Shown here in pieces: positions 14,280 through 36,272 of a stretch of 64,000 nucleotides of DNA (the stretch's first letter is position 1; the number at the start of each line of letters is the position of its first letter). The stretch is from assembly GCA_963725585.1 (NCBI GenBank), contig CAVRYU010000009.1, forward strand, positions 413,070-477,069, written 5' to 3'. Position numbers and translations under genes: made by a program. Source of the DNA: an uncultured Bacteroidales bacterium (GTDB lineage Bacteria > Bacteroidota > Bacteroidia > Bacteroidales > VadinHA17). The notes below the pieces were generated by a model. That model was not told where the DNA came from. It was given only the letters and a program-made list of their open reading frames with translations, and searched no databases.

Positions 14280-15099
14280 AAAGTATGTCTCCTTTATTGT
14301 AAACACCAAGTACCTCTAAATTGCTTGTATATTCTTTTAGAATGGATTCAATAATCTTCATATCGGAATTGTCAGGCAGTTCAAGGTCGAGGTAGAACAT
14401 GTATTCCCAATCACCGTTCAACCTGGGTACTGACTGAATCTTGGAGAGATTGATGTTCATTTCAGCAAGCTTCACAAGAACGGCAGCGAGTGATCCTGGT
14501 TTGTGTCCTGTAGCAAAACAGATTGAGACTTTATTCCCTGTCTTATTTCCTTTTTCCTCACTGCCAATCACAAGGAACCTGGTGTAATTTTTCTTGTATG
14601 TCTCAATCCCTCCTGCGATGATTTCAAGACCATATATTTCAGCTGCATTGGAAGAAGCTATAGCTGCAATTTTTTTCAGCTTGTGTTCCGATATCAGTTT
14701 TGCGCTTCCGGCAGTATCGTCCGATTCGACAAGTGTTATTTCAGGGTACTGGTTCAGGAAAGTCATACACTGTTCCAGTGCAATCGGATGTGACCTGATC
14801 TGTTTTATCTCGTGAATAGTTTGACCGGGAAGAGCCATCAGGTTCTGCTTAACCCTGAGATTATGTTCCCCCAGCATTTTTAGTCCCGATTCCCTTATAA
14901 GACTGTAATTGTAAAGGATACTTCCCGACCGCGCATTTTCGATGGCCATCATTGCCAGATCGGCTTTCCCTTCCATGACGGAGTTCAGAGTCTGGTCAAA
15001 AGTCGCGCAGGGGACTATTTCTATATCTTTATTACTAAAAAACTGCCTGGCTGCAACTTCGTGAAAACATCCTTTTTCTCCCTGTACCGAAATTTTCAT
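14269..15099 (-). CDS. pheA: Prephenate dehydratase with C-terminal ACT domain
   Basis: 276 aa. The PDT domain starts ISVQGEKGCFHEVAA. An ACT-like tail follows (KPGSLAAVLVKLAEMNINLSKIQS). Confidence 0.85.
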   Translation of the reverse strand: MKISVQGEKGCFHEVAARQFFSNKDIEIVPCATFDQTLNSVMEGKADLAMMAIENARSGSILYNYSLIRESGLKMLGEHNLRVKQNLMALPGQTIHEIKQIRSHPIALEQCMTFLNQYPEITLVESDDTAGSAKLISEHKLKKIAAIASSNAAEIYGLEIIAGGIETYKKNYTRFLVIGSEEKGNKTGNKVSICFATGHKPGSLAAVLVKLAEMNINLSKIQSVPRLNGDWEYMFYLDLELPDNSDMKIIESILKEYTSNLEVLGVYNKGDILYES

Positions 15100-15113: not shown

Positions 15114-15145
15114 AAAAAAAGAAGGGTCCCTTTTTGGGGACCCTT
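15114..15145 (-). terminator. Intrinsic terminator of the Phe attenuator, 14 nt upstream of the pheA start
   Basis: The minus strand reads AAGGGTCCCcaaaaaGGGACCCTTcttttttt. Confidence 0.8.
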
Positions 15146-15183
15146 GCTTATATATGATTTCTTATCAGTATACAAAAATCCCC

Positions 15184-15249
15184 TTATTTCTTTTTGCAGT
15201 AAAAAAAGAAGAAGAAAAAAGAGAAAAAACTGTTGTATACAATATTCAT
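15184..15249 (-). CDS. Phe/Tyr leader peptide MNIVYNSFFSFFFFFFYCKKK
   Basis: 21-codon ORF with 8 Phe and 2 Tyr codons. It lies between a TAnnTTTG box and the terminator. Confidence 0.8.
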   Translation of the reverse strand: MNIVYNSFFSFFFFFFYCKKK

Positions 15250-15269
15250 TGATTAGGGTTATTGGCTTA

Positions 15270-15277
15270 CAAAAGTA
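15270..15277 (-). promoter_or_regulatory. Bacteroidota -7 promoter box (TACTTTTG) for the aromatic operon leader
   Basis: Matches the TAnnTTTG consensus, 20 nt upstream of the leader ATG. Confidence 0.55.
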
Positions 15278-15536
15278 ATTTATTTTTCATAAAACAAATA
15301 AAAAATTAATAAAATATTGAAAAACACTATTTTTTTTAACCCCAAAGCATGTAGAGATACTTTGCTCCGCTAGCGCGGATTTGTAATCCGTGCTGGTCGG
15401 TTCTGATCAATGTAGTTTTTGGCACCGATTGCAAATCGGCGCCAGCATTTCAAACAAGCAGCTTCGAGGGTTTCGGTTTTATTTGTGACGGTTCAAAAGG
15501 ACTTCTTCAACTTCAGAGAATGATACATTTTTTGTT

Positions 15537-20322: not shown

Positions 20323-21605
20323 TTCCGAGCGATTTTAAACGTATTGTAACTGCGTTCTTATGGCCATGCAAAAGTTCGGCCTCAGCCATCTTCTCGATGA
20401 CAGGTCCAAGGTTTCTTAGGCCTTCAGCAGAAATCTCCTGGAATGTTATTTTTTTCACAAAGCTATCCACTGAAACACCGCCGAAACTCTTTGCACTGCC
20501 AGCTGTTGGCAGTGTATGGTTTGTTCCTGAAGCATAGTCTCCGGCACTTTCGCAGCTGTATTTTCCAAGGAACACTGATCCCGGCATTTGTAACCTGTCC
20601 CGCAAGCAATGATGGATCGGATGTTGAGATTATAAGATGCTCCGGGGCATAAAGGTTGCTCAGTTCAATACAATCCTGGAGTGAGTTTAGGAGAATCAGG
20701 GAGCTGTTTTCAAGCGACTTAAGAGCTATCTCTTTTCTGGGTAAAAGATCTACCTGTTTATGGATTTCAGCTTCAATTGCATTTATCAGCTCCGAATTAT
20801 CTGTCAGCATGATTACCTGGCTGTCGGTTCCGTGTTCAGCCTGGGACAGGAGATCCGAAGCAACAAATGACGGGTCAGCATATCTATCAGCAATTACAAG
20901 GACCTCGCTTGGTCCGGCTGGCATATCAATCGCGATCCCGTCGAGCTGAACCATCTCCTTTGCTTTCGTAACATACTGGTTCCCCGGACCAAAAATCTTA
21001 TCAGCTTTTGGTACGGATTCTGTACCAAAAGCCATTGCTGCTATAGCCTGGGCACCACCGATCCTGAAGATATCCGTGACCCCTGCAATGTGTGCTGCAT
21101 ATAATATTAGCGGATTTACATCTCCGGTCTTGTCGGGAGGTGTACAGAGGATAATCTCCCGGCACCCGGCTATTTTTGCCGGCACAGCCAGCATGAGAAC
21201 AGTTGAAAACAGCGGAGCAGTGCCACCGGGGATATATAATCCGACACTTCTGATCGGTACATTCTTTCTCCAGCAATTTACTCCTTTTGTCGTCTCAACA
21301 ACCTGTTCATTATTTAGTTGTGGCCTGTGAAATTTTTCAATATTGGATTTCGCAACATCGATTGCATCTTTTAAAGCAGATGGTACTTTATCAGCTGATT
21401 CTGCAATTTCAGAACTTTGCACTCTCAGATTTTTAAGTGAGACGCCGTCAAATTTCTCTGATAATTCAAAAATCGCTCTGTCGCCCGAGCTTTTTACCTG
21501 GCGCAAAATAGCGGAAACAGTCTCCTCGAGTCCCGACCGGTCCAAAGAGGGACGTTTACAGAGGGAATCCCATTTATCCCTTTCCGGGTATTGAATGATT
21601 TTCAT
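20315..21605 (-). pseudogene. hisD: Histidinol dehydrogenase, one frameshift as assembled
   Basis: The 380-aa frame is HisD up to ..LLAGQVTNAG and then turns to nonsense. The other frame continues SVFLGKYSCESAGDYASGTNHTLPT... The frames join with one extra base in gccgggatcagtg (about 20575-20590). Confidence 0.9.
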
Positions 21606-22462
21606 TACAATATCATTTTCTCGATAGGTATTACAAGTATTCCTTCAGCTCCTGCATTTTTAAGCTGGTTGATCCTGTCCCAGAATTCGTCCTCCTTAAC
21701 TACAGAGTGTATACTGCACCAGCCTTTTTCCTCGAGCGGCAGGATTGTAGGACTTTTTACACCGGGAAGGATTTTACAGATATCGTGCAACGCTTCAAGC
21801 GGAGCATTAAGAAGTATGTATTTATTTTCCTTTGCGTTTTTTACAGCTCTGATCCTGAAGAGAAGCTTATCCAGAATACTCTGTTTCTTTGAATCAAGGT
21901 TTTTATTAGAGATAATAACTGCCTGACTTTTCAGAATGGTGCTGACTTCACATAATCCATTGGTCATCAAAGTACTGCCGGAGCTGACAATATCGCACAC
22001 AGCATCTGCCAGACCGATCCCGGGTGCTATTTCAACGCTTCCGCTGATCTCTTCTATTTCAGCATTGATATTGTTTTCTTTAAGATATTCAGTAAGAAGC
22101 CTGGGATAACTGGTTGCAATTTTTTTGTTCATAAAATATTCAGGACCAGTGAAGGTTGATTCTTTGGGAATTGCAAGGCTCAAACGGCAATGTGCGAAAC
22201 CCAGTTGTTCAAGTATTGATACATCCTTATTTTTTTCGAGAACCATGTTCTCACCAAGAATCCCTATATCGGCAACCTGTTGTTCGACATACTGGGGGAT
22301 ATCATCATCCCGTAAGAACAGAATTTCGACAGGGAAATTTACAGCGTTAGTCTTAAGGACGTCAGTGCCATTAGAAAATTTTATCCCGCACTCTTCCAAT
22401 AGTTTATGGGAGTTCTCGCTTAACCGGCCTTTTTTCTGGATCGCAATTTTAAGTTTGCTCAT
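21605..22462 (-). CDS. hisG: ATP phosphoribosyltransferase (long form)
   Basis: 285 aa (MSKLKIAIQKKGRLSE...). It is the first gene of the his operon. Its TAA overlaps the hisD ATG (TAATG). Confidence 0.9.
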   Translation of the reverse strand: MSKLKIAIQKKGRLSENSHKLLEECGIKFSNGTDVLKTNAVNFPVEILFLRDDDIPQYVEQQVADIGILGENMVLEKNKDVSILEQLGFAHCRLSLAIPKESTFTGPEYFMNKKIATSYPRLLTEYLKENNINAEIEEISGSVEIAPGIGLADAVCDIVSSGSTLMTNGLCEVSTILKSQAVIISNKNLDSKKQSILDKLLFRIRAVKNAKENKYILLNAPLEALHDICKILPGVKSPTILPLEEKGWCSIHSVVKEDEFWDRINQLKNAGAEGILVIPIEKMIL

Positions 22463-22500
22463 TTTTATTTTTGTTTAATCCGGGCAAACCATCGGGGAAT

Positions 22501-22530
22501 AAAAAACCCGTCAGATCTGCTCAGACGGGT
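22501..22530 (-). terminator. Intrinsic terminator of the His attenuator, about 38 nt upstream of hisG
   Basis: The minus strand reads ACCCGTCTGAgcagaTCAGACGGGTtttttt: a 10-bp perfect stem plus a U-tract. Confidence 0.85.
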
Positions 22531-22561
22531 TATGATATTTTGATACAACTACATATCACTT

Positions 22562-22618
22562 TCATTTCGCCTGAGAGCAAGGATGAAAATGGTGATGATG
22601 TAATTGAAATTGATACAT
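22562..22618 (-). CDS. His leader peptide MYQFQLHHHHFHPCSQAK
   Basis: 18-codon ORF with 5 His codons (HHHHFH). It lies between a TAnnTTTG box and the terminator. Confidence 0.85.
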   Translation of the reverse strand: MYQFQLHHHHFHPCSQAK

Positions 22619-22638
22619 ATATATTATGATTCTAAATG

Positions 22639-22646
22639 CAAAGATA
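22639..22646 (-). promoter_or_regulatory. Bacteroidota -7 promoter box (TATCTTTG) for the his leader
   Basis: Matches TAnnTTTG, 20 nt upstream of the leader ATG. Confidence 0.55.
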
Positions 22647-22712
22647 TTAAAATATTACTAATTGTCAATTTAATACGTTAAAAAGTTGTAGCGACGCGCA
22701 ATTGTAAAAGTT

Positions 22713-22741
22713 GTAGAGACGCGCAATTTGCACGTCTCTAC
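22713..22741 (-). terminator. Stem-loop downstream of leuB (candidate terminator of the ilv-leu operon)
   Basis: GTAGAGACGcgcaatttgcaCGTCTCTAC is a 9-bp stem. On the minus strand it is followed by aactttta. A related half-copy sits at 22686-22705. Confidence 0.45.
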
Positions 22742-22810
22742 TATTATACCCATTTATAGCTTCTTTACTTCGAAACCATTTCTGCTTGTTTGAAACTATT
22801 TCTGCTTGTT

Positions 22811-23872
22811 TCAAACCCGCTCTGCTACCAGATCACCAACCTCAGTGGTTGAAAATCCCATCTTCCCGGCACCGAGGTCCTTTAACTTATTGGCAGTCAC
22901 ATCCATGATGGCATTCTCAATAGCCTGCGCTGCTTTTGCTTCTCCAAGATGCTCAAGCATCATTGCTCCGCATGCAATGGCTGCCAGAGGATTGATAACA
23001 TTCATTCCGGTGTATTTCGGGGCCGATCCGCCAATAGGCTCAAACATCGAAACTCCCTCAGGATTAATGTTTCCTCCTGCAGCGATCCCCATCCCTCCCT
23101 GGGTTATTGCCCCGAGATCAGTGATGATATCCCCGAACATATTTGTTGTAACTATTACATCAAACCATTCAGGATTTTTGACCATCCACATACATGTTGC
23201 ATCAACATGATAATATTCCCTCTTAATATCCGGAAAATCGGTTTGTCCCATTTCATGAAATGCCCTTTCCCAGAGATCAAAAACATATGTCAGGACATTG
23301 GTCTTACCGCAAAGTGCCAAAGTCTTTTTCCTGTTTCTTTTCCTTGTGAATTCAAAAGCATATCTTAAACACCGGTCAACCTGAAAACGGTTATATACCA
23401 TATTCTGAATCGCAACTTCATGTGCGGTACCCTTCATGGTAACTCCTCCGCTTCCTGTATATACATCTCCTGTATTTTCCCTGACAACCACATAATCAAT
23501 ATGTTCCGGACCCTTGTCCCTGAGAGGCGTGGCAACACCAGGGTATAGTTTAATCGGACGAAGATTAATATACTGATCGAGCTCAAAACGAAGCTTTAGA
23601 AGAATTCCCTTTTCAAGAATTCCCGGTTTCACATCAGGATGCCCGATTGCACCAAGGAAAATTGAATCAAATTTTCTGAGTTGTTCCGGTGCCGATTCTG
23701 GTAAAACTTCCCCGGTCCTGAGATAACGATCTCCTCCGAAATCAAATTCCTCGAAATTGAGCTTAAAACCGTATTTTGAAGCAGCGGCACTCAGTACTTT
23801 TCTTCCCTCTCTTACCACCTCCGGGCCCGTTCCGTCACCAGGGATGGCTGCAATATTGTAAGTTTTGTTCAT
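22811..23872 (-). CDS. leuB: 3-isopropylmalate dehydrogenase
   Basis: 353 aa (IAAIPGDGTGPEV..., NMFGDIITDLGA, GSAPKY). Confidence 0.9.
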   Translation of the reverse strand: MNKTYNIAAIPGDGTGPEVVREGRKVLSAAASKYGFKLNFEEFDFGGDRYLRTGEVLPESAPEQLRKFDSIFLGAIGHPDVKPGILEKGILLKLRFELDQYINLRPIKLYPGVATPLRDKGPEHIDYVVVRENTGDVYTGSGGVTMKGTAHEVAIQNMVYNRFQVDRCLRYAFEFTRKRNRKKTLALCGKTNVLTYVFDLWERAFHEMGQTDFPDIKREYYHVDATCMWMVKNPEWFDVIVTTNMFGDIITDLGAITQGGMGIAAGGNINPEGVSMFEPIGGSAPKYTGMNVINPLAAIACGAMMLEHLGEAKAAQAIENAIMDVTANKLKDLGAGKMGFSTTEVGDLVAERV

Positions 23873-23892
23873 GCGGTTATTTTTTCAGATTA

Positions 23893-25476
23893 TTATTCAT
23901 TATGATTTTTAGCAATTATTGTATCGCCAATTCTGATCTCGCTGTTCTCAACTATATTCAGCATTTTTTCGGTAGCCTTTATTGCCGATTCAGTCTGATC
24001 CGCATCAAGCCCCTTCGTCCTGAATTCCCTGTTTTTGAAATTCCAGGTAATTACAGTCTCAACCAGGGCATCAGTCTTGCCTCCCGGAGGAATTGAAACT
24101 TCATAATCTGTAAGTGTGGGAAGCTCTTTTCCAAGCCTGTCATAAATGACCCTGATGGCTTTCATAAAAGCATCATACTGACCGTCACCTGAAGAAGTCT
24201 CCTGGTAAATGCTGCCGTCTATTTCGATCTGAACGCTTGCGAAGGGTTTCAAACCAAATGACAGGGAAAGCGAATAGTTCTTTATAAAAATTTTGTAATC
24301 AGCTCTGTCGTTTCCAAGCACATCAGATATTATAAATGGCAGATCCTCGGGTGTGACATTTTCCTTTTTATCCCCAAGTTCAATTACCCGCTGAGTGACC
24401 TTTGCCAGGGATTCAGGATTCAGATCGAGTCCGAATTCTTCAAGATTTTTTTTGATGGTGGCTTTTCCCGATTGCTTGCCAAGTGCATATTTCCTTTTTC
24501 TTCCAAATCTTTCGGGAAGGAGGTTATTATAATAAAGGTTGTCCTTGGAATCTCCGTCAGCATGCACTCCGGACGTCTGTGTGAAAACATTTTCACCTAT
24601 TACCGGCTTGTTTACCGGGATCCTAATACCACTGAATGTTTCTACAATTTTACTGGCTTTTGTTATTTCAAATTCATTAACCCCGGTTTCAACTTTAAGC
24701 TGATCGTGCAGAACACCTATAACACTTGAAAGAGGGGCATTCCCTGCTCTTTCTCCCAAACCATTGATGGTTGTATGAACTCCTTTAATGCCTGTTCTCA
24801 CTGCCGAATATATGTTGGCAACTGCCAGATCATAGTCATTATGAGGATGGAAATCAAAATGCTGTGAAGGATATTTGTCAACCATTTTTTTGCAGAAAGA
24901 GTATGTTTGATCCGGATTCAGAATTCCAAGTGTATCCGGAAGCATAAATCTGACGATTCTTTCATCTCTGAGACTATCGAGCATATAGAATACATAATCT
25001 TCTGAACTGATCATGCCGTTCGACCAGTCTTCGAGGTATATATTTACCTGCATATCAAGTCCTTCAGCCCTTTTGATGATGCCCTTTATGTCATTTACAT
25101 GCTGCTCAGGGGTTTTGCGCAGTTGTTTTTCGAGATGCCTTAATGATCCTTTGCAGAGCAGGTTGATAACTTTTCCTCCGGCGTCATGGATCCAGTTGAT
25201 TGAAATATCCCCATCTATAAATCCAAGAACTTCAACTTTTTCCTGGAAATTATTACGCCGGGCCCACCTTGTGATCATTTTAAGAGCTTCAATTTCCCCG
25301 ATGGAAACCCGCGCCGAGGCAACCTCGATGCGGTCGACTTTCACTTCTTTTAATAAAAATGCTGCTATGTGAAGTTTTTCAACCGGAGAATAAGAAATAC
25401 CCTGCATTTGTTCGCCATCCCTGAGGGTGGTATCCATTATTTCAATTCTCATTTTATTCCTTTTTTCCTGTTTCAA
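23893..25476 (-). CDS. 2-isopropylmalate synthase paralog, (R)-citramalate synthase-like
   Basis: 527 aa. It has the DRE-TIM core ([23 protein letters not shown]) and a LeuA-dimer regulatory C-terminus. It is a second LeuA-family gene in the same operon as the 497-aa leuA. Confidence 0.7.
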   Translation of the reverse strand: MKQEKRNKMRIEIMDTTLRDGEQMQGISYSPVEKLHIAAFLLKEVKVDRIEVASARVSIGEIEALKMITRWARRNNFQEKVEVLGFIDGDISINWIHDAGGKVINLLCKGSLRHLEKQLRKTPEQHVNDIKGIIKRAEGLDMQVNIYLEDWSNGMISSEDYVFYMLDSLRDERIVRFMLPDTLGILNPDQTYSFCKKMVDKYPSQHFDFHPHNDYDLAVANIYSAVRTGIKGVHTTINGLGERAGNAPLSSVIGVLHDQLKVETGVNEFEITKASKIVETFSGIRIPVNKPVIGENVFTQTSGVHADGDSKDNLYYNNLLPERFGRKRKYALGKQSGKATIKKNLEEFGLDLNPESLAKVTQRVIELGDKKENVTPEDLPFIISDVLGNDRADYKIFIKNYSLSLSFGLKPFASVQIEIDGSIYQETSSGDGQYDAFMKAIRVIYDRLGKELPTLTDYEVSIPPGGKTDALVETVITWNFKNREFRTKGLDADQTESAIKATEKMLNIVENSEIRIGDTIIAKNHNE

Positions 25477-26050
25477 ATGAAGTTATCAGATCTTTTTTAC
25501 TGAGAAGATAGTCTATGTCGTCGAGACCTTTTAACATGCACTCTTTTTTATATGGATTTATTTCAAATATGACCGATTCACCGTCCGGAAGAATGGTAAT
25601 AGATTGTTTTTCAAGATTTATCCTTATCAGAGATCCGGGTTCCTTTTGAATAATAAAGAGAAGGTTATTAAGGAATTTTTCAGGAACTACAACAGGAAGC
25701 AATCCGTTGTTAAGGGCATTATTTTTGAAAATATCAGCAAAAAAGCTTGAGATCACAGCCCTGAACCCATAATCATATATTGCCCACACAGCATGCTCAC
25801 GGCTTGATCCGCTGCCGAAATTCTTACCTGCCACAAGTATTTTACCGTTGTATCTTTTATCGTTAAGGACAAATTCCATATTTCTGTTTCCGGTCTTTTC
25901 GTATCGCCAGTCGCGGAAAAGATTTTCACCAAACCCTTCCCTTGAAGTTGCACTGAGGAACCGTGCCGGAATTATCTGATCGGTATCCACATTTTCAAGA
26001 GGCAACGGGACACATGTTGATTCAAGTATATTGAATTTTTCTTTTGGCAT
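25454..26050 (-). CDS. leuD: 3-isopropylmalate dehydratase small subunit
   Basis: 198 aa (DTDQIIPARFL, GKNFGSGSSREHA). Confidence 0.9.
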   Translation of the reverse strand: MPKEKFNILESTCVPLPLENVDTDQIIPARFLSATSREGFGENLFRDWRYEKTGNRNMEFVLNDKRYNGKILVAGKNFGSGSSREHAVWAIYDYGFRAVISSFFADIFKNNALNNGLLPVVVPEKFLNNLLFIIQKEPGSLIRINLEKQSITILPDGESVIFEINPYKKECMLKGLDDIDYLLSKKDLITSFETGKKE

Positions 26051-26076
26051 TTCGTTTTTCTATTATTCAGTTTATA

Positions 26077-27483
26077 TTAATCAATGAATTCGCGGGGATC
26101 TGTTATTCTTCCTGTTATCGCAGCAGCAGCAGCTGTCAACGGACTTGCAAGAAGGGTTCTTGCCCCGGGTCCCTGGCGCCCTTCAAAATTTCTGTTTGTC
26201 GTTGAAACAGCATATTTGCCTGAAGGGATTTTATCTTCGTTCATCGCAAGACAGGAGGAACATCCGGGTTGTCTTAACTCAAAACCCGCCTTATTCAGGA
26301 TTCTGTCGAGGCCCTCATCGATTGCCTGCTTTTCAACTGCCTTTGATCCTGGAACAATAAGAGCAGTAATGTTTGCAGCTTTCTTTTTACCCTTAACCAG
26401 GTTTGTAAAGGCTCTTAAATCTTCAATCCTGCCGTTTGTGCAGCTGCCAAGAAAAACATAATCAACAGGGTGCCCAAGAAGTTTCATCCCCGGGACAAAT
26501 CCCATATAGTCGAGAGATTTAAGGAATGAAACAGAATCCTCAGAGCTTATATCATCCGTTGTAGGGATTGAATCATCTATTGCTATTCCCATTCCAGGAT
26601 TTGTACCAAATGTTATCATTGGTCTGATATGGTTCCCGTTAAACTCCAGTTCGCGGTCAAACAGGGCTTCAGGATCGCTCTTTAATTCTTTCCGACTAAG
26701 AAGAAGTGAATTCCAGTCGAAACCTTCGGGAAATGATGGCAACTCTTTAAGATATCTGAAAGTTGTTTCATCAGGAGCGATTAGACCACCCCGGGCTCCC
26801 ATTTCGATACTCATATTGCAGATCGTCATCCTTCCCTCCATTGTCAGGTCGCTGATAACAGATCCCGTATATTCAACAAAATAACCTGTAGCTCCTCCGG
26901 TTGATATCTGAGATATGACATACATGATAATATCTTTTGAAGTCACACCCTTTTGAAGTATTCCGTTGATGGTAATCTTCATTTTTTTGGGCTTGGGCTG
27001 AAGGATACACTGGGTAGCAAGAACCATTTCAACTTCGCTTGTACCGATTCCGAATGCGATGGCTCCAAAAGCACCATGTGTTGAAGTGTGACTGTCGCCG
27101 CAGACAATAGTCATACCCGGCCTCGTATATCCAAGTTCCGGACCTATTACATGCACTATTCCGTTTTTGGGATGATTCAGACCAAATAATTCTATTCCGT
27201 AATTCCTGCAGTTTTCGGCAAGCCTGTCGACCTGGTTCCTTGAAAGTTCTTCCCTGATAGGCTTATCCTGATTTTCAGTTGGAATATTATGATCCGCTGT
27301 AGCCAGTGTCTTCCCCGGTCTGAATACGGGTATTCCTCTTTCCTTCAAGCCATTGAATGCCTGAGGGCTTGTCACTTCATGAATGTAGTGCTGATCGATG
27401 TAAAGGACATCAGGTCCATTTTCTATCGACTGAACTACATGTGAATCCCAGATCTTATCAAAAAGTGTTTTCGGTTCCATCAT
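26077..27483 (-). CDS. leuC: 3-isopropylmalate dehydratase large subunit
   Basis: 468 aa aconitase-family protein ([47 protein letters not shown]). Confidence 0.9.
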
Positions 27484-27496
27484 TTCTTTTTCTTAT

Positions 27497-27594
27497 CTCA
27501 GTGGAACTCTGTGTCTCCTCAGTGGAACTCTGTGTAATGTTTTTATAAGAATTTACACAGAGAAACACAGAGAAGTCACAGAGGAACACAGAGG
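27497..27594. repeat. Simple-sequence hairpin element inside the operon (leuA-leuC spacer)
   Basis: The left arm is a tandem tc(t/c)tcagtggaactctgtgt x2. The right arm is four roughly 10-nt units containing cacagag (tacacagagaaacacagagaagtcacagaggaacacagagg), the reverse complement of ctctgtg. Confidence 0.8.
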
Positions 27595-27602
27595 TTTTCC
27601 GT

Positions 27603-29096
27603 TTATTTGATCTTGGATATTGCATCTATAAATGCTTCTACTGAAGCGGTTACTATATCAACATTTGCAGAGAAGCCGTAATAAATCTTTCCCTCGTGTT
27701 CTATCTGGATATGGACCTTCCCGATATCATCGCTTCCTTTTGTTATTGCCTGTATAAGGAACTCCTCGAGATGAACTGTTTTACTGATAAGGTGCTTTAC
27801 TGCCGCAAAGGCAGCATCGATTGGTCCGTTTCCTGAAGCTGTTGAGGTATGTACCTCCCCGTTTATTCTTATTCCCACTGTTGCAACAGGTATGGCTGAT
27901 TTTCCGCATGTAACCTGGAGAAGCTCAAGCTTAAGAGACTTTTCTCCTGAAAAGACTTCTCCGGAGAGAATTCTGAGGTCCTCGTCATTGATCTCCTTTT
28001 TCTTGTCGGCAAGTGTAAGAAAACGGTGATAAATATCATCAAGTTCCTCCTTACCGAAATTATAACCCAGTGTTTCAAGCCTGTGATTGAGAGCCGCCCT
28101 TCCGCTTCTCGCAGTCAGGATAATTGATGATTCCTTTATTCCAACCTCATGAGGATCAATTATCTCGTAATTTTCCCTGTACTTAAGGACTCCATCCTGG
28201 TGAATTCCTGAAGAGTGAGAAAAGGCATTCCTGCCAACAATCGCTTTGTTAGGCTGGACGGGCATGCTCATAAGTGTTGATACGAGTCTGCTTGTGCTGA
28301 AAATTAGCTTTGAATTAATGTCCGTTTTAAGGTTCATTGAGTGATGGCTTTTGAGGATCATTGCCACCTCTTCGAGCGATGTGTTTCCAGCCCTTTCACC
28401 AATACCGTTCATAGTCACTTCAACCTGCCGTGCTCCGTTCAATACTCCCATTATAGTGTTTGCGGTTGCCATACCAAGGTCGTTATGACAATGCGTCGAG
28501 ATGGTTGCTTTATTAATATTTGAGACATTTTCCTTAAGAAACCTGATCTTTTCCCCATACTCTTCCGGAAGGCAGTATCCTGTTGTATCAGGTATATTCA
28601 CCACTGTTGCACCTGCCTTTATGACTGCCTCGATGACCTTTGCAAGATATTCGTTTTCACTTCTTCCCGCGTCTTCAGCATAAAACTCAACATCTTCCAC
28701 AAATTTACGGGCATATTTTACAGCATCGACAGCTCTTTTAAGTATCTCCTCAGGTGTTGTCCTGATTTTATACTTTATGTGATAGGGAGATGTACCGATA
28801 CCGGTGTGTATCCTCTTCTTTTTTGCATACTGGAGCGCTTCGGCAGCCACTTCAATATCTTTCTTCACAGCTCTTGTAAGAGCGCATATTACCGGATTTG
28901 AGATAGCTTTTGATATTTCAACGACGGATTTGAAATCACCCGGACTGGAAATCGGGAATCCGGCTTCAATTACATCGACACCGAGAGCTTCAAGTGCCTG
29001 CGCTACCTGGATTTTTTCAACGGTGTTCAGCTGGCAGCCTGGCACCTGCTCCCCGTCCCTCAGGGTAGTATCGAAAATGATTACTTTGTCTTCCAT
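27603..29096 (-). CDS. leuA: 2-isopropylmalate synthase
   Basis: 497 aa ([24 protein letters not shown]-terminal regulatory domain). Confidence 0.9.
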
Positions 29097-29115
29097 AATT
29101 GCTTGATTATGATTA

Positions 29116-30162
29116 TTATTTAACCGGTCTCAGTTTTCTGACTGCAGACCCTGTTCTCCATAATTCAGAGTTTCCTAGTTCCTTTAATTCAGCATCGAGT
29201 ACCTCTTTATAATTTGGAGCACCCGTTGAATTTAAGACTCTGACGCACTCTTCGCCTGACTTCACTTTATTATAAAGATCTTTAAAAACCGGGAGAACGG
29301 CATCCCTGAACTTTGGTCTCCAGTCGAGTGCCCCGCGCTGTGCAGTGGCGCTGCAGTTGGAGTACATCCAGTCCATTCCTTTTTCGTCAACAAGCCGGAT
29401 AAGGCTCTGGGTCAGCTCTTCGACAGTCTCATTAAAGGCTTCTGACGGAGAGTGTCCGTTATCGCGCAATACCTTATACTGGGCATCCATGATTCCTGCA
29501 AGAGCTCCCATTAGCACACCTCTTTCTCCAGTAAGATCCGAGAATACCTCTTTTTCAAAAGTTGTCGGGAAGAGATATCCTGACCCGATTGCTATGCCAA
29601 GAGCAATTATACGGTCAGTAGCCCTTCCGGTGAAATCCTGAAAGACGGAAAAGCTTGAATTTATTCCGGCACCTGCAATAAAATTACGTCTGACACTTGT
29701 CCCGGAACCTTTAGGTGCACAAAGAATCACATCTATATCTTCAGGAGGGATTACGCCTGTATGCTCTTTGTATGTAATTGAGAAACCATGTGAAAAATAG
29801 AGTGCATCTCCTTTTTTAAGGCATGGTTTCAGCCTGGGCCAGAGAATTCTCTGGGCAGCATCTGAAACCAGATATTGAATGATGGTCCCTTTTGTGGCAG
29901 CTTCCTCAACTGTGAAAAGCGTTTTTCCGGGAACAAACCCGTCAGCAACAGCTTTGTCCCAGTCGGCTTTGAATTCGGGTGCCTGACCGATAATTACATT
30001 TATGCCATTATCTTTCATGTTAAGGGCCTGCGCGGGTCCCTGCACTCCATAACCTATTACTGCAACAAGTTCGTTTTTAAGCACTTCACGTGCTTTTGAC
30101 AGTGGAAACTCATCGCGTGTTACAACTTCTTCAAGAACTCCGCCGAAATCAATTTTTGCCAT
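29116..30162 (-). CDS. ilvC: Ketol-acid reductoisomerase (class I)
   Basis: 348 aa ([21 protein letters not shown]...). Confidence 0.9.
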
Positions 30163-30222
30163 GGTTAATAATTTTATGTTTGTAAATGCTTTAAATATTT
30201 TTTTCGTTTCATTTGGTTTTTC

Positions 30223-30285
30223 GCCCCCCTTCCCCCCTGAAGGGGGGTTGAAAGCTTTTTAAGCCCCCTTTAGGGGGTTGGGGGC
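30223..30285. repeat. C/G-run nested-hairpin repeat, type 2 (copy H), ilvN-ilvC spacer, overlapping the ilvN 3' end
   Basis: GCCCCCC tt CCCCCC tgaa GGGGGG ttgaaagctttttaag CCCCC ttta GGGGG tt GGGGGC. The last ilvN codons (..LPPTP*) are read from the repeat. Confidence 0.85.
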
Positions 30286-30839
30286 AAAATAAACTCATCC
30301 GGTTTATACTGATTTGCTTCATCCATCTCCTCCAGATATGCATTAAGCTCCTTAACCTGTCTTGTAATAGCAACCCGTCCTGACCTTACGAACTGTAATA
30401 CACCGCTTGGCTGAAGCACATGAAGCAGATCATTTATCTGTGATTTATGTCCGGTTTTTTCAATTACAATATATTCAGGAGAGACTTCAAGAATCCTGGC
30501 ATTATGGTCGCGGACTATAAGGTCGATCATATTGCCCGACATCAGCCCTGTTGTTTTTACCTTGTAAAGTGCAAGTTCCTGATATACTATCTCATCGGAA
30601 GTATGGACGAACACTTTCAGAACATCAACAAGCTTCTGCATCTGACGGGCAACTTTCTGAACCATTTCAGCGGTTGCCTTTACAACAAGGGTAAGCATCT
30701 GAACGCCTTTGACTGCAGATTCGGAGGCTGTGATGCTCTCGATGTTAATCTGTCTTCTTGTCAGAATAATGGTTATCTGGCTCAGGATGCCTATGTGATC
30801 CTCCGTAAAAAGAGATATTGTAAATTCCTGTTTATTCAT
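30270..30839 (-). CDS. ilvN: Acetolactate synthase small (regulatory) subunit
   Basis: The ACT domain starts MNKQEFTISLFTEDHIGILSQITIILTRRQINIESI. The ATG is at 30839. The 30875 start in the track is a TTG lying inside repeat copy I. Confidence 0.85.
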   Translation of the reverse strand: MNKQEFTISLFTEDHIGILSQITIILTRRQINIESITASESAVKGVQMLTLVVKATAEMVQKVARQMQKLVDVLKVFVHTSDEIVYQELALYKVKTTGLMSGNMIDLIVRDHNARILEVSPEYIVIEKTGHKSQINDLLHVLQPSGVLQFVRSGRVAITRQVKELNAYLEEMDEANQYKPDEFILPPTP

Positions 30840-30867
30840 AATTATATTTTCTTTTCTCTTGTTAACA

Positions 30868-30934
30868 CCCCCCAACCCCCCCGGAGGGGGGCAAAATTCT
30901 GTTGGGAATTAACTCCCCTTCAGGGGATGAGGGG
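30868..30934. repeat. C/G-run nested-hairpin repeat, type 2 (copy I), ilvB-ilvN spacer
   Basis: CCCCCC aa CCCCCCC gga GGGGGG ...(23 nt)... CCCC ttca GGGG atga GGGG. Confidence 0.8.
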
Positions 30935-30942
30935 TATTTGCT

Positions 30943-32712
30943 TTATTTGTATGTTAAAGTCACCTCCGATACTGAAGCTCCAGGTTCAATCATTGGCAGC
31001 ACATTTGCCTCCTTGTCGATTTTTATATCGAGCAGGTATGGTCCGTCTGCCTCAAGCATTTCAACCAGTGATTTTTTCAGTTCCTCTCTTTCCGACACAA
31101 TTTTTGCAGGTATGCCATACCCTTTTGCAATAGTTATAAAATCGGGATTGACAAGTTCGGTTGATGCATACCTTTTCGAGTAGAACATATCCTGCCATTG
31201 TCTTACCATTCCAAGGAAATTATTATTCAGGATAATGATCTTAACCGGGATCCTGTACTGCATTATTGTTCCGAGTTCCTGTATCGTCATCTGGAATCCA
31301 CCGTCACCAATAAATGCAACTACCTGTTTGTCGGGCTTTCCGATTTTTGAACCAATCGATGCAGGAAGTCCGAAGCCCATAGTTCCCATACCACCTGATG
31401 TTACAAGACTGTTAGGGTTTGAAAAGCCGTAATAACGTGCGACCGACATCTGATTCTGTCCGACATCAGTCACAATTATTGCATCACCCTTCGTCAGTTC
31501 AGAAACCAGCCTGACAACTTCTCCCATCTTAAGCTTCCCTTTTTCAGGTCTTGTTTCGGACTTAATAACTTTTTCATATTCAGTCTTGTCGCAGATCCTG
31601 AATTCCCTTATCCATTTTTCATAACTTTTTTTCTGAACTATGGGAATCAGATAATTAAGGACCTCTTTTGCATCATTGTTTATTTCCAGATCGACTATTA
31701 CATTTTTATTGATCTCTGCTTCATCGATTTCGATATGAATTATCCTTGCATTTTTTGCATATTTTTTAAGGTTCCCTGTTACCCTGTCATCGAAACGCAT
31801 TCCGATGGCAATAATTAGATCAGCCTCATTTGTAAGCAGGTTTGGACCATAGTTCCCATGCATCCCGAGATATCCCGTATAGAGACGATGCCCTGATGGA
31901 AACGAAGAGAGACCGAGCAGGGTTACTGCAACAGGGATTCCGGTTTTTTCGGCAAATTTCAGAAGCTCGTCTTCAGCTCCAGATAAAAGCACTCCGTGTC
32001 CTGCAAGGATAAGCGGCTTTTCAGCATGATTGATCATAATTGCAGCTGATTCGATTGCCCTTGTATGCAGTTTAATGTGGGGATTATAACTCCTTATATA
32101 ATTACACTTTTTATATTTAAAGTCGAGCTTTTCGTACTGGGCATCCTTTGTAATATCAATGACAACTGGTCCGGGCCGCCCGGTTTTCGCAATGTAAAAT
32201 GCCCGTGCGATTGTTTCAGGGATATCAACCGATTTCTTTATCTGGGCATTCCATTTAACAACAGGCATCGAAACCCCAAGTATGTCAGTCTCCTGGAAGG
32301 CATCCGTCCCGATCAGGTTTGAAACCACCTGTGCCGTTATGAATACTACAGGAATAGAATCGAGATAAGCATTTGCTATCCCGGTAATCAGATTGGTTGC
32401 CCCCGGACCGGATGTCGCAAAGCACACACCAGTCTTGCCTGTAACCATAGCATAAGCCTGGGCAGCATGAGCCGCACCCTGTTCATGCCTTGTAAGTATA
32501 TGGTTCAGTCTGCCTTCATAATCGAGAAGACGGTCGTAAACCGGCATTATGGCACCTCCCGGATAACCGAAAATAGTATCCACACCTTCCTCAACCAGGC
32601 ACCTGAGAAGTGCCTCAGCACCGGTAACTGTCTCAAACCCGTTTGTCTGTTCCTTAACCTGTATCGTTTCCTTTTCAGTCTTCATAAAATAACTTTTATC
32701 TTTATCGATCAT
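30943..32712 (-). CDS. ilvB: Acetolactate synthase large subunit (ThDP-dependent)
   Basis: 589 aa (GAEALLRCLVEEGVDTIFGYPGGA, GGMGTMGFGLPASIG, GDGGFQM). The start could also be the internal ATG at 32685. Confidence 0.9.
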   Translation of the reverse strand: MIDKDKSYFMKTEKETIQVKEQTNGFETVTGAEALLRCLVEEGVDTIFGYPGGAIMPVYDRLLDYEGRLNHILTRHEQGAAHAAQAYAMVTGKTGVCFATSGPGATNLITGIANAYLDSIPVVFITAQVVSNLIGTDAFQETDILGVSMPVVKWNAQIKKSVDIPETIARAFYIAKTGRPGPVVIDITKDAQYEKLDFKYKKCNYIRSYNPHIKLHTRAIESAAIMINHAEKPLILAGHGVLLSGAEDELLKFAEKTGIPVAVTLLGLSSFPSGHRLYTGYLGMHGNYGPNLLTNEADLIIAIGMRFDDRVTGNLKKYAKNARIIHIEIDEAEINKNVIVDLEINNDAKEVLNYLIPIVQKKSYEKWIREFRICDKTEYEKVIKSETRPEKGKLKMGEVVRLVSELTKGDAIIVTDVGQNQMSVARYYGFSNPNSLVTSGGMGTMGFGLPASIGSKIGKPDKQVVAFIGDGGFQMTIQELGTIMQYRIPVKIIILNNNFLGMVRQWQDMFYSKRYASTELVNPDFITIAKGYGIPAKIVSEREELKKSLVEMLEADGPYLLDIKIDKEANVLPMIEPGASVSEVTLTYK

Positions 32713-32719
32713 TTCTTAA

Positions 32720-32813
32720 CCCACCCCCCGCCCCTCCCAGGAGGGGAGCCTAATGTGTAAGCCCTCACCTCGCACCCCGTACCTCGTACCCGTCGTACCC
32801 CGTACCCCGTACC
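32720..32813. repeat. Degenerate C-run hairpin followed by a cgtacc microsatellite (ilvD-ilvB spacer)
   Basis: ccaCCCCCCgCCCCTCCcaggaGGGGAG is followed by ccccgtacctcgtacccgtcgtaccccgtaccccgtacc, which carries 5 copies of cgtacc. Confidence 0.7.
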
Positions 32814-34646
32814 TTATATAATCCGAACTGCTCCCTTATCTGCTGAGCTTACCAGTTTTGCATATGCTTTAAGTGAAGGCGGAATTGCCCTGTTTCTTTT
32901 TGAAGGTTTAAAGGCATTATCCCCTTTAAGTTGTTCTTCATGAATTCTTTCGACAAACTCATTTTCTGAAATAAGGGCATTTATTTTACGGCCGGGAACA
33001 TCTATTTCAATCTGATCACCTTTCCTGAGAACAGCAATTTCCCCACTTGCTGCTGCCTCTGGCGATAAATGTCCTATCGATAACCCTGATGTACCTCCTG
33101 AAAACCTTCCGTCAGTTATTAGAGCGCATTTCTTATCGAGAAGTTTTGATTTCAGATAGGAAGTAGGGTAAAGCATTTCCTGCATACCTGGTCCTCCTTT
33201 TGGCCCTTCATACCTTATAACCACAGCATCACCCTGGGTTACAATTCCTTTTAGAATTCCGTCCACAGCCTCTTCCTGCGATTCGAAAATAATTGCCGGG
33301 CCCTTAAATTTTAAAAGAGAAGGATCGATGCCCGCAGTTTTAACAATACATCCGTTCTTTGCGATGTTTCCATAAAGCACAGCGAGACCTCCGTCTTTAT
33401 TATAGGCGTTTTGCATGCTTCTTATACATCCGTTCTTCCTGTCGGTATCAGGATCGTCATAAAAAGTGCTCTGGGAACCCATCTCAAGATTCTTTTTCAT
33501 TGATGGAGCACTCATCCAAAGATCTTTTGCCTCAGGCAGGATTTCACTGCTCATAATGTCCCAATCGGCAATTGCCTTGTGCAGGCTGTTATAATCGATA
33601 CGTTTCACAGAACTATCTATCAGTTTATTGCGTTCAAGTTCTCCCATTATTGAAAGAATTCCTCCGGCTCTGTTAACATCCTGTATGTGGTACCTGGAAC
33701 TCGGCGAAACTTTACAGATGTTAGGTATCCGTCGCGATAGTTCATCAATATCTTTCATTGTAAAATCAACACCGGCTTCATGAGCAATTGCAAGAAGATG
33801 GAGAACAGTATTAGTCGATCCGCCCATGGCTATATCAAGCGACATTGCATTCATAAACGCCTGTTTTGTTGCAATTGATCGCGGCAAAATGTCTGAATCA
33901 CCGTCGACATAATATCTGTTTGCGAGACTGACTATTAATTTTGCGGCCTTTTCGAAAAGTTTCAGTCTGTTGGAATGAGTGGCAAGTACTGTACCGTTAC
34001 CGGGCAATGCCAGACCAAGGGCTTCAACAAGGCAGTTCATGGAGTTTGCTGTAAACATCCCTGAGCATGATCCGCATGTAGGGCAAGCCGACATCTCCAT
34101 TTCATAAAGGTCCTTATCACTTACAGAGTCATCGGCTGCAGATACCATCGCGTCGATCAGATCGATATTTCTGTTCCGGTAGTTGCCGGCCTCCATGGGC
34201 CCGCCTGAAACAAATACTGCTGGTATATTCAATCTCATCGATGCCATAAGCATACCAGGAGTTATTTTATCGCAATTGCTTATACATATCATTGCATCAG
34301 CCAGATGGGCATTACATACATATTCTACGCTGTCTGCTATAAGTTCCCTTGACGGGAGGGAATAAAGCATTCCTTCATGCCCCATTGCTATGCCGTCGTC
34401 TATTGCTATAGTATTGAATTCAGCTGCAAACAGACCCTGCTTTTCAATCTCTTTTTTTATGGACTGTCCTATGCTATGAAGATGAACATGTCCGGGAACG
34501 AATTGCGAGAAGGAGTTGACGATTGCTATCACGGGTTTTCCGAACTGATCCTCTTTCATTCCGTTTGCCCGCCAGAGACTTCTTGCACCGGCCATGTTCC
34601 TTCCTGTTGTTGTTCTTGAACTTCTGAGCTGATTTTTCATCGCCAT
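32814..34646 (-). CDS. ilvD: Dihydroxy-acid dehydratase
   Basis: 610 aa ([43 protein letters not shown]). Confidence 0.9.
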
Positions 34647-34657
34647 AAAGATCTTTT

Positions 34658-34690
34658 AAAAAAAAAGCTTCCCGGTGATCCGGAAAGCCT
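34658..34690 (-). terminator. Intrinsic terminator of the Ile/Leu attenuator, 11 nt upstream of the ilvD start
   Basis: The minus strand reads GCTTTCCGGatcaCCGGGAAGCttttttttt. Confidence 0.8.
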
Positions 34691-34724
34691 CTGTATGTTT
34701 ATATTAATACATATTATTCCCGGA

Positions 34725-34784
34725 TCATTTGCCTGTGGCAAGAATGAGGATGAGGGCGATAATATGGATTAAAGTTTTCTTCAC
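34725..34784 (-). CDS. Ile/Leu-rich leader peptide (V/M)KKTLIHIIALILILATGK
   Basis: 19-codon ORF with 5 Ile and 4 Leu codons. It is GTG-initiated, with no in-frame ATG. The stop region tgatccgg is complementary to ccggatca in the terminator 5' arm and loop. Confidence 0.65.
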   Translation of the reverse strand: MKKTLIHIIALILILATGK

Positions 34785-34806
34785 TGTTTTCTTTAAAATT
34801 GAATGA

Positions 34807-34814
34807 CAAAAGTA
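34807..34814 (-). promoter_or_regulatory. Bacteroidota -7 promoter box (TACTTTTG) for the ilv-leu leader
   Basis: Matches TAnnTTTG, 22 nt upstream of the leader GTG. Confidence 0.5.
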
Positions 34815-34855
34815 TTTAATTTTTTAATATATCAAATAAAAACAGCATTTTTTAT

Positions 34856-36272
34856 TCATTTTTTATTTTTTTGTTCAGCGGTAAGCTGATCCGGAACTTT
34901 GCCCCTGACTTCCAATTTGATTACAGTTGCAACCTGATCGGGTGCTGAAGCAGGCAATGAAATGGTTAGTGCACCATCTTTTGAGTTCATTGTCTTGACT
35001 TTTGTTCCGTCAGACAGGATCCTTGCAGAAACCACACTGTTCTTCAAACCGGGGATAATCAGCTTTCCATTTGACGGCCATTCAAAAACTGAAAAATAAA
35101 GAATGGTTCCATTTTTTGTCTCTTTTTTTGTGCATCGTCCCCATTGGAAAAGACCCCATGGACTTGCTTTGGTCCCATATACTGCTTCTCCGTTAACCTT
35201 CATCCATTTACCAATTTCGGTAAGTATGTTCACACTTTCAGGCGGAAATTCTCCTTCTGCCGTCGGTCCAACATTCAGCAGGAAATTGCCACCTTTTGAC
35301 GCAATATCAAGAAGGTTCTGAATAAGTGTCTTTGGTGTTTTATAGTTATGATCATAGCTTTTATAACCCCATGTCCCGTTCATTGTCATGCATGTCTCCC
35401 AGTCGGTTCCGTCGAGATCAGCCAGATTTGGGATCCTCTGTTCCGGGGTTTTATGATCTCCCGGGAAATTCGGTCGTTTCAGCCTGTCGTTTGTAATAAT
35501 TGCAGGTTGAAGTGATAGCAGTGACTGAAGCTTCGTGGCGGCATCGTCCGTCATATTTGTTGGTGTATCCCACCACAAAACAGCCAGTTCACCATAATTT
35601 GTAAGAAGCTCCTTTACCTGAGGCACCGATACTGCATCGATATATTCAGCGAAAGTTCTTTTTTCCTGTGCGGGATCCCAGTGACCGTTATGCTCTTTTG
35701 TATAAGCATCAATAATTACTGAATCCGGATTTGCCCATCCCTCTTTCATCGGCCTTCTGGCAGCAGATCCGCCCGGATTATTCCAGTCCTGAGCTTGTGA
35801 ATAATAAAATCCGAGTTTTATACCGTATTTTTTGCATGCTTCAGCAAGCGGTTTTAAAAGATCTTTCCCATAAGGTGTCGCATCAACCACGTTCCATTTA
35901 CTTGCTTTGGTTTCAAAAAGTGCAAAACCGTCGTGATGCTTGGATGTGATCACTATATACTTCATTCCTGCATCTTTTGCCATTCTTACCCATGCATCAG
36001 GATCATATTTTACTGGATTGAAATCTTTGGCAATTCTCTGATAATCAGCTACCGGTATCTTTCCCCGGTTCATAATCCATTCCCCGATCCCTCCGATCTG
36101 CCTTCCGTCCCAGGTTCCCGCAGGTACCGCGTAGACGCCCCAGTGAATGAACATACCGAAACGGGCTTCGCGCCACCATTGCATTCTTTCGTCTTTTGTA
36201 AGAGCTTTCTGGGCTGTTTCCCTGAACCATCAGGAAAATTAAATACACATGTTGTCGATTAACCTTTTTCAT
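34856..36272 (-). pseudogene. GH29 alpha-L-fucosidase; catalytic ORF intact from 36184, N-terminal signal region apparently out of frame
   Basis: The 442-aa ORF starts MQWWREARFGMFIHWGVYAVPAG (GH29 core). That frame stays open upstream (..ETAQKALTKDER). The only plausible signal peptide (MKKVNRQHVYLIFLMV, ATG 36272) is one base out of frame, with the join near 36210-36229. Confidence 0.7.

Follow-up and report, generated by a model that had tools for sequence, protein, structure and literature searches.

What decides whether RNA polymerase enters the branched-chain amino acid operon of an uncultured Bacteroidales bacterium, and what part does the short Ile- and Leu-rich open reading frame (ORF) in front of its first gene, ilvD, play in that decision? 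The question arises in a 64,000-nt stretch of contig CAVRYU010000009.1 (hereafter the window, in whose numbering all coordinates are given), where the leader, the terminator and the ilvD operon all lie on the minus strand. An earlier reading of this DNA, made from its letters alone (the sequence-only reading), had proposed an Ile/Leu leader-peptide attenuator, and folding, conservation at 40 of 40 loci and operon content all turned out favourable to it. The element is very probably a classical ribosome-mediated (leader-peptide) attenuator, predicted from sequence and structural modelling to sense charged tRNA-Ile and tRNA-Leu and to gate ilvDBNC-leuA-leuCD-cimA-leuB. Its parts are the following.

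34833..34836, minus strand: -33 element TTTG of a Bacteroidetes-type promoter, 18 nt upstream of the -7 box (direct reading)
34807..34814, minus strand: -7 box TACTTTTG, consensus TAnnTTTG (direct reading)
34725..34784, minus strand: leader ORF VKKTLIHIIALILILATGK, with a GTG start, 19 codons and a TGA stop (reading, folding, codon statistics)
34754..34772, minus strand: region 1, leader codons 5-11 UUAAUCCAUAUUAUCGCCC, predicted 5' strand of the anti-antiterminator (minimum free energy (MFE) structure, centroid, RNAalifold, pair counts)
34717..34727, minus strand: region 2a, predicted antiterminator 5' strand UGAUCCGGGAA, which opens with the leader stop codon (folding, shuffles)
34704..34721, minus strand: region 2b, GGGAAUAAUAUGUAUUAA, predicted 3' strand of the anti-antiterminator, overlapping the antiterminator strand (folding, pair counts, RNAalifold)
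34676..34686, minus strand: region 3, UUUCCGGAUCA, made up of the terminator's 5' arm and its loop; antiterminator and terminator share this strand
34658..34692, minus strand: intrinsic terminator with a 13-bp stem (13 pairs, 6 of them G-C), an AUCA loop and U9, with a predicted free energy of -17.9 kcal/mol

Promoter and leader could be read just as first described: a -7 box, a gap of 22 nt to the GTG at 34784, and a 19-codon ORF that ends with the TGA at 34727-34725 and in which nine of 19 codons (nine of the 18 after the start) specify Ile (five) or Leu (four), all within codons 5-15 (34772-34740). Among the 632 short ORFs of the window (15-30 codons, six frames), Ile and Leu together reach at least 50% in just 0.5%, and VKKTLIHIIALILILATGK is the sole one with at least nine Ile or Leu in 11 residues. 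By direct reading, no Shine-Dalgarno sequence stands ahead of the leader GTG. The T and TTTG positions of the -7 box are invariant or nearly so in the alignment of 26 close relatives (A1). A scan for sigma-70 promoters was uninformative, the promoter here being of the Bacteroidetes type; its pattern, TTTG-N17-21-TAnnTTTG, has two matches in the window, each preceding a leader ORF, and two is also the number predicted by chance.

The terminator with its T9 lies where the sequence-only reading had placed it, with the stem AGAGGCUUUCCGG-AUCA-CCGGGAAGCUUUU at 34692-34663 and nine T at 34666-34658. Among terminator-like sites of the minus strand from 21000 to 35000 it has the longest stem (13 pairs), and it is paired in 97% of cells across the 26 close relatives. 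The complementarity that had been noticed between the leader stop region and the terminator does exist and overlaps the 5' arm and loop, but it extends over 11 bp and not 8: UGAUCCGGGAA (34727-34717) pairs with UUUCCGGAUCA (34686-34676) through a helix with one G-U pair. The predicted free energy of this antiterminator hairpin, -17.9 kcal/mol, is the same as that of the terminator; the duplex has a z score of -3.0, one of 300 shuffled versions of the stop-codon region pairing equally well, and the fold of the whole leader RNA has a z score of -4.4, with none of 200 shuffles folding as well. In the MFE and centroid structures computed without a ribosome, codons 5-11 and the stop region pair with the segment after the stop, and the terminator forms too. 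RNAalifold recovered this anti-antiterminator and the terminator from a model-based alignment of the 26 relatives, 10 of the 30 pairs showing compensatory changes; a covariance-model re-alignment was used here because plain MAFFT alignments mis-registered the terminator arm in seven rows. The predicted no-ribosome structure is paired in 94% of cells, against 41-56% when the partners are slid by 1-3 columns, and changes on both sides occur in seven of its pairs, where one of 500 shuffles attained as many.

Which of the two hairpins forms would depend on the ribosome. For each A-site codon, we folded the RNA left free by a ribosome with an assumed footprint of 12 nt. Under these constraints an A site at any of codons 1-15 leaves the antiterminator intact (-17.6 to -22.7), and it weakens stepwise, to -12.6, -6.1 and -0.8, once the A site has moved to codon 16, to codon 17, and to codon 18 or beyond. 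Codon 15, the last position that keeps the antiterminator intact, is also the final Ile/Leu codon of the leader. Terminator and antiterminator are thus predicted to be mutually exclusive and equally stable, with the choice set by ribosome position, which bears out the folding part of the original proposal.

In the mechanism that we propose, transcription would start a few nt past the -7 box and a ribosome would then initiate at the leader GTG. When Ile and Leu are plentiful, this ribosome would reach the UGA and cover the 11-nt antiterminator strand, so that the terminator with its U9 would form and RNA polymerase would stop before ilvD. When Ile-tRNA or Leu-tRNA is scarce, the ribosome would stall within codons 5-15 and break the hairpin that ties the leader codons to the post-stop segment; the freed UGAUCCGGGAA would pair with UUUCCGGAUCA, no terminator would form and the operon would be transcribed. 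With no ribosome loaded, the leader codons would sequester the antiterminator strand and termination would be the default. We infer both the position of the transcription start and the response to starvation in vivo from these sequence features.

Enterobacterial leaders (ilv, leu, his and trp) work by this mechanism: in the ilvGMEDA (ilvL), ilvBN (ivbL) and leu (leuL) systems of Escherichia coli and Salmonella, the antiterminator is blocked by a ribosome at termination and released by one that has stalled. The ilv and leu leaders of these bacteria share with ours a short ORF rich in cognate codons and a four-segment RNA (1:2, 2:3, 3:4) with a terminator. They differ in that there is no sequence or covariance-model similarity between them, and in that the leader described here has a GTG start, no Shine-Dalgarno sequence and a Bacteroidetes-type promoter; moreover, enterobacteria have separate ilv and leu operons, whereas here one leader with Ile and Leu codons (and no Val) precedes a fused ilv-leu-cimA operon.

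The genes placed under this putative control are as follows.

32814..34646, minus strand: ilvD, dihydroxy-acid dehydratase (NCBIfam NF009103, 1025 bits)
22811..32712, minus strand: ilvB, ilvN, ilvC, leuA, leuC, leuD, cimA and leuB (an NCBIfam match for each)

The matching of every gene in NCBIfam, including a CimA-type citramalate synthase for cimA, upholds the operon content originally read from the sequence. The nine genes ilvD-ilvB-ilvN-ilvC-leuA-leuC-leuD-cimA-leuB run head to tail over 12 kb, from 34646 to 22811 on the minus strand, a minus-strand scan found no strong terminator within the ilvD-leuB operon, and spacing and synteny suggest that they form one transcription unit. Together they cover the steps shared by Ile, Val and Leu synthesis, the branch to Leu, and the citramalate pathway, which supplies 2-oxobutyrate for Ile; Ile arises here via the cimA/leuCD/leuB route. 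The Ile and Leu codons of the leader therefore fit the products of the operon, since it makes both Leu and Ile. The ilvD ORF has two in-frame ATGs, at 34646 and 34640. As close relatives lack the first and keep the second ATG alone, and as homologues have 608 aa, the 610-aa ilvD call is probably two codons too long and, judged by this comparison, the true start is probably the ATG at 34640. The T-run, which had been said to end 11 nt before the ilvD ATG, does so with respect to the first ATG, but the likely start at 34640 puts it 17 nt away.

We scanned ilvD loci with IlvD, taking one genome per species, and obtained 51 loci: 26 of close uncultured Bacteroidales, 14 of distant Bacteroidota, two further loci (L022 and L039) and nine labelled as other phyla. 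A separate search for IlvD homologues gave proteins that are 78-91% identical. An essentially identical leader is found at the 26 close loci. By their pattern of variation, these mini-ORFs evolve like coding sequence. Over codons 5-15 of 19 aligned leaders, the entropy at codon positions 1, 2 and 3 is 0.55, 0.22 and 0.81, respectively. Indels inside the ORF are of +6 nt (four loci, with extra Val/Leu-Leu codons) or -3 nt (one locus), and the distance from the -7 box to the start codon changes by 1-2 nt, that is, not by multiples of three. The start codon of close relatives is mostly GTG, with ATG in five and TTG in one, and the distant families all use ATG; the stop codon, at one fixed position, is either TGA or TAA; and the ORF is intact in 25 of the 26. 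We infer from this pattern that the mini-ORF is translated.

The 14 distant loci, which include Anaerophaga, Marinilabilia, Prolixibacteraceae and Salinivirgaceae, have a leader of unrelated nucleotide sequence and the same build: an ATG-initiated ORF of 18-26 codons with 7-13 Ile/Leu/Val (ILV) codons and a stop, and, separated from the stop by 19-46 nt, a GC-rich hairpin and U-tract. At all 40 Bacteroidota loci where ilvD heads the operon, the gene is thus preceded by an ILV-rich mini-ORF and a terminator, as would be expected from the sequence-only reading; the L022 locus is cut within the element, and in the Muribaculaceae locus L039 ilvD is internal to a leu-ilv operon. At the nine loci labelled as other phyla, nothing comparable was found upstream of ilvD. 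The leaders fall into about seven sequence families, between which the peptide sequence differs and ILV richness is kept. The gene preceding the leader varies among relatives while ilvB-ilvC-leuA after ilvD are constant, so that the element goes with ilvD rather than with the gene before it.

Twenty-six leaders drawn from these approximately seven families were used for a comparison of duplexes. In all 26, the strand complementary to the terminator 5' arm begins between -21 and +5 nt from the stop codon. The mean duplex energy is -15.2 kcal/mol for cognate strands versus -9.0 kcal/mol for cross-family ones, just 3% of non-cognate pairs reach the cognate median, and the family-by-family matrix is block-diagonal. 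In these sequences, then, the antiterminator strand clearly co-varies with the terminator between families.

A scan of the window for hairpin and U-tract sites preceded by mini-ORFs of biased composition revealed two further leaders on the same strand. The His leader (minus strand, 22501-22646) has a -7 box TATCTTTG at 22646-22639, an ORF from the ATG at 22618 to the TGA at 22562 that encodes MYQFQLHHHHFHPCSQAK with five His, an antiterminator in which CUCAGGCG (codons 15-17) pairs with CGUCUGAG, and a terminator with U6 at 22530-22501; hisG-hisD-hisC-hisB-hisH follow from 22462. The Phe leader (minus strand, 15114-15298) has a promoter TTTG-N-TACTTTTG at 15298-15270, an ORF from the ATG at 15249 to the TAA at 15184 that encodes MNIVYNSFFSFFFFFFYCKKK with eight Phe, and a terminator GGGUCCCC-AAAAA-GGGACCC with a U-tract at about 15145-15114; it is followed by pheA at 15099 and by genes for an aminotransferase, prephenate dehydrogenase, DAHP synthase/chorismate mutase and aroA. 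A covariance model made from ilv leaders only (R1) matches the His leader over its full length with 45.7 bits (E = 4e-6) and the Phe leader, also over its full length, with 28.1 bits (E = 0.017). That three operons in a row should each be preceded by a mini-ORF enriched in the amino acid they make is difficult to account for unless sensing is based on translation.

This bears on a different explanation of the locus, namely an RNA-only or factor-dependent switch that responds to a metabolite, to uncharged tRNA in the manner of a T-box, or to an RNA-binding protein, with the mini-ORF incidental and untranslated. Such a switch would profit from the fact that the alternative structures exist independently of translation, and the GTG start and missing Shine-Dalgarno sequence would suit it as well, although the absence of Shine-Dalgarno sequences is normal in Bacteroidota, which weighs against this last point. 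We consider it highly unlikely: conservation is periodic in 3 nt, indels are in frame and start and stop codons are preserved; ILV enrichment persists across families that differ in nucleotide sequence; and His-rich and Phe-rich ORFs before the his and phe operons are explained solely by translation-based sensing. The leader region also has no match to a T-box or riboswitch model of Rfam at E<=10, and no Rfam 15 family, these included, reaches its gathering score anywhere in the window. The best Rfam match of the leader, over the full length of the model, is RF01692 (Bacteroid-trp), with 25.8 bits (E = 2.2). As this is below the threshold of 49 bits and the leader has no Trp codon, we rejected membership in that family. 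We likewise rejected Phe_leader (RF01859; 19.2 bits for a threshold of 55), no further proteobacterial leader family matching at E<=10, and weak matches to PyrR and L10_leader, which correspond merely to the terminator hairpin.

A very improbable alternative is that the leader is translated and acts mainly in another way, through Rho-dependent termination or through translational coupling and re-initiation. Leader ORFs near structural genes have been proposed to boost translation, in Bacteroidetes too (PMC4833913), but about 85 nt separate the leader stop from the start of ilvD, far more than the re-initiation window of 10-14 nt (PMC4833913), and the canonical 13-bp hairpin with U9 and the antiterminator of equal energy are both present and conserved. 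Scarcely credible, finally, is the idea that the hairpin is an insulator or the terminator of the upstream gene (34856-36184) and the mini-ORF a small hydrophobic membrane peptide or noise. In its favour, the hydrophobic peptide has roughly the length of a transmembrane helix, and the terminator sits downstream of a convergently oriented gene end. Against it, a conserved promoter separates the upstream gene from the mini-ORF, most relatives lack that gene or have another in its place and still keep leader and terminator with ilvD, only ILV richness and not peptide sequence is kept between families, and in every family the stop codon lies within a strand able to pair with the terminator arm.

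Several observations count against the Ile/Leu attenuator itself. The leader VKKTLIHIIALILILATGK contains no Val codon, yet the operon also makes Val. GTG is an uncommon start for leader peptides, which had been taken as a ground for lower confidence; this ground did not hold, since GTG is kept in most close relatives and replaced solely by ATG or TTG, and the worry is removed because starts interchange and indels are in frame inside the ORF and out of frame upstream of it. The folding by ribosome position rests on the assumed 12-nt footprint, although masking by a terminating ribosome should be robust to the exact footprint because the stop codon forms the first three bases of the antiterminator strand. 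Within the close family, no significant covariation was detected in the antiterminator helix, because this helix is nearly invariant (its 8-bp core is at least 92% paired and almost unchanged), so that covariation support for the antiterminator comes solely from the comparison between families. Several of the distant families, in turn, share a GAGAAUGG/CCAUUCUC motif, and they are therefore probably related and not fully independent. Lastly, one leader among the 26 (L011), the sole exception, is out of frame with its TGA through a 1-nt deletion. At this locus (L011:3852-3983) the deletion lies at GCCA-AGGCAC and the frame would run through the terminator; it may be an assembly error or a constitutive variant.

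How new is such an attenuator? Attenuators in Bacteroidetes/Chlorobi are reported to have been predicted by Vitreschak et al. in 2004 and by Lopatovskaya et al. in 2010. The Bacteroidete tryptophan peptide leader RNA Bacteroid-trp was defined by Weinberg et al. 2010 (PMC2864571); it resembles the element studied here in that it belongs to the same phylum and combines a leader peptide and a terminator before an amino-acid operon, and differs in having Trp codons in place of Ile/Leu ones and another downstream operon. In Flavobacterium psychrophilum, leader peptides have been listed before ilvE-ilvD-ilvB, hisG, pheA and trpE (Guerin et al. 2021 supplement, SI D9, Table S7, PMC9723704), and those of hisG, pheA and trpE show condition-dependent read-through (PMC9723704). 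The ilvE-ilvD-ilvB operon of this species is preceded, like ours, by an Ile-rich mini-ORF, MRKFNIIPSIIIAIVIITTAKGML, and a terminator, and the peptide of its hisG leader, MSLNQLHHHHFHICSQAKC, is approximately the same as the MYQFQLHHHHFHPCSQAK of the window; in contrast, F. psychrophilum belongs to the Flavobacteriia, its operon begins with ilvE, and it has three tandem units versus one here. This last point comes from our own reading of the 437-nt ilvE 5' region (PMC9723704 Table S7), which contains three leader and terminator units. Unit 1 is the reported 25-aa leader, the sole unit named in PMC9723704, and units 2 and 3 have near-identical leaders of the type MTTNTIII(I)ISIIIRSFE and GCCTTTCTC...GAGAAAGGC terminators. 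These terminators match those of three of our loci (L023, L024 and L027), and the likeness to the element of the window is one of architecture. Leader-like short ORFs of B. thetaiotaomicron have been mentioned in general terms (Ryan et al. 2020, PMC7366714). Farther afield, a Leu-rich attenuator peptide of Staphylococcus aureus (PMC5794164) and an upstream ORF of Corynebacterium ilvB (PMC10272879) are described as leader-ORF control of branched-chain operons; they come from unrelated phyla with unrelated sequences.

The kind of attenuator is thus already described in Bacteroidota, while this ilv leader family is absent from Rfam. To a specialist, an ilv leader in Bacteroidales is unsurprising, the mechanism is that of textbooks, and nothing is overturned. 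Its value lies in a precise, testable regulatory model for branched-chain amino acid synthesis in an uncultured Bacteroidales lineage and in a curated seed for an RNA family that Rfam lacks, with 26 close and 14 distant members plus the His and Phe counterparts. With three consecutive operons of the window so equipped, Bacteroidota appear to make systematic use of ribosome-mediated attenuation, which would imply that transcription and translation are tightly coupled in a phylum that does not initiate by way of Shine-Dalgarno sequences.

The number of ILV units is one here, two in Prolixibacteraceae and three in F. psychrophilum. At the Prolixibacteraceae loci (L027, L028 and L031), two tandem ILV leader and terminator units are located some 300 nt before ilvD, with MKNLAIIINVVLLVVVVNPAK and MEHFSTYILVVVIVVLLRFC as their leaders; each unit has its own stop-codon-embedded antiterminator, and together they may constitute a two-step or AND-type gate. 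One could tentatively picture, though we lean towards doubting it, the element of the window as the single-unit form of an ancient, phylum-wide and uncatalogued ILV leader family (Bacteroidia and Flavobacteriia) that evolves by tandem duplication, that uses tandem units as AND gates for different branched-chain amino acids and that, together with homologous His and Phe leaders, would be the principal means by which biosynthetic operons of the phylum respond to specific amino acids.

Two minor features were noted at the borders of these operons. Directly past the leuB stop (22811), the minus-strand segment 22705-22810 contains a 20-nt tandem direct repeat, AACAAGCAGAAAT(A/G)GTTTC(A/G) x2, and a 9-bp hairpin, GTAGAGACG...CGTCTCTAC, followed by AACTTTT (~22741-22705), plus a partial second copy of the hairpin. 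This hairpin is probably the terminator of the ilv-leu operon. We considered whether the his attenuator might double as the ilv-leu terminator in a supra-operonic arrangement, and rejected this as the main reading because a separate hairpin with a short T-run follows leuB. At two loci from metagenome-assembled genomes labelled Leptospirales / Spirochaetota (L020 ~30-110 and L025 ~3760-3850), no leader was seen upstream of ilvD; both carry two direct copies of GGGTCAGAGTAAA, a possible binding site for a repressor or activator, just ahead of a TTGACA-like promoter.

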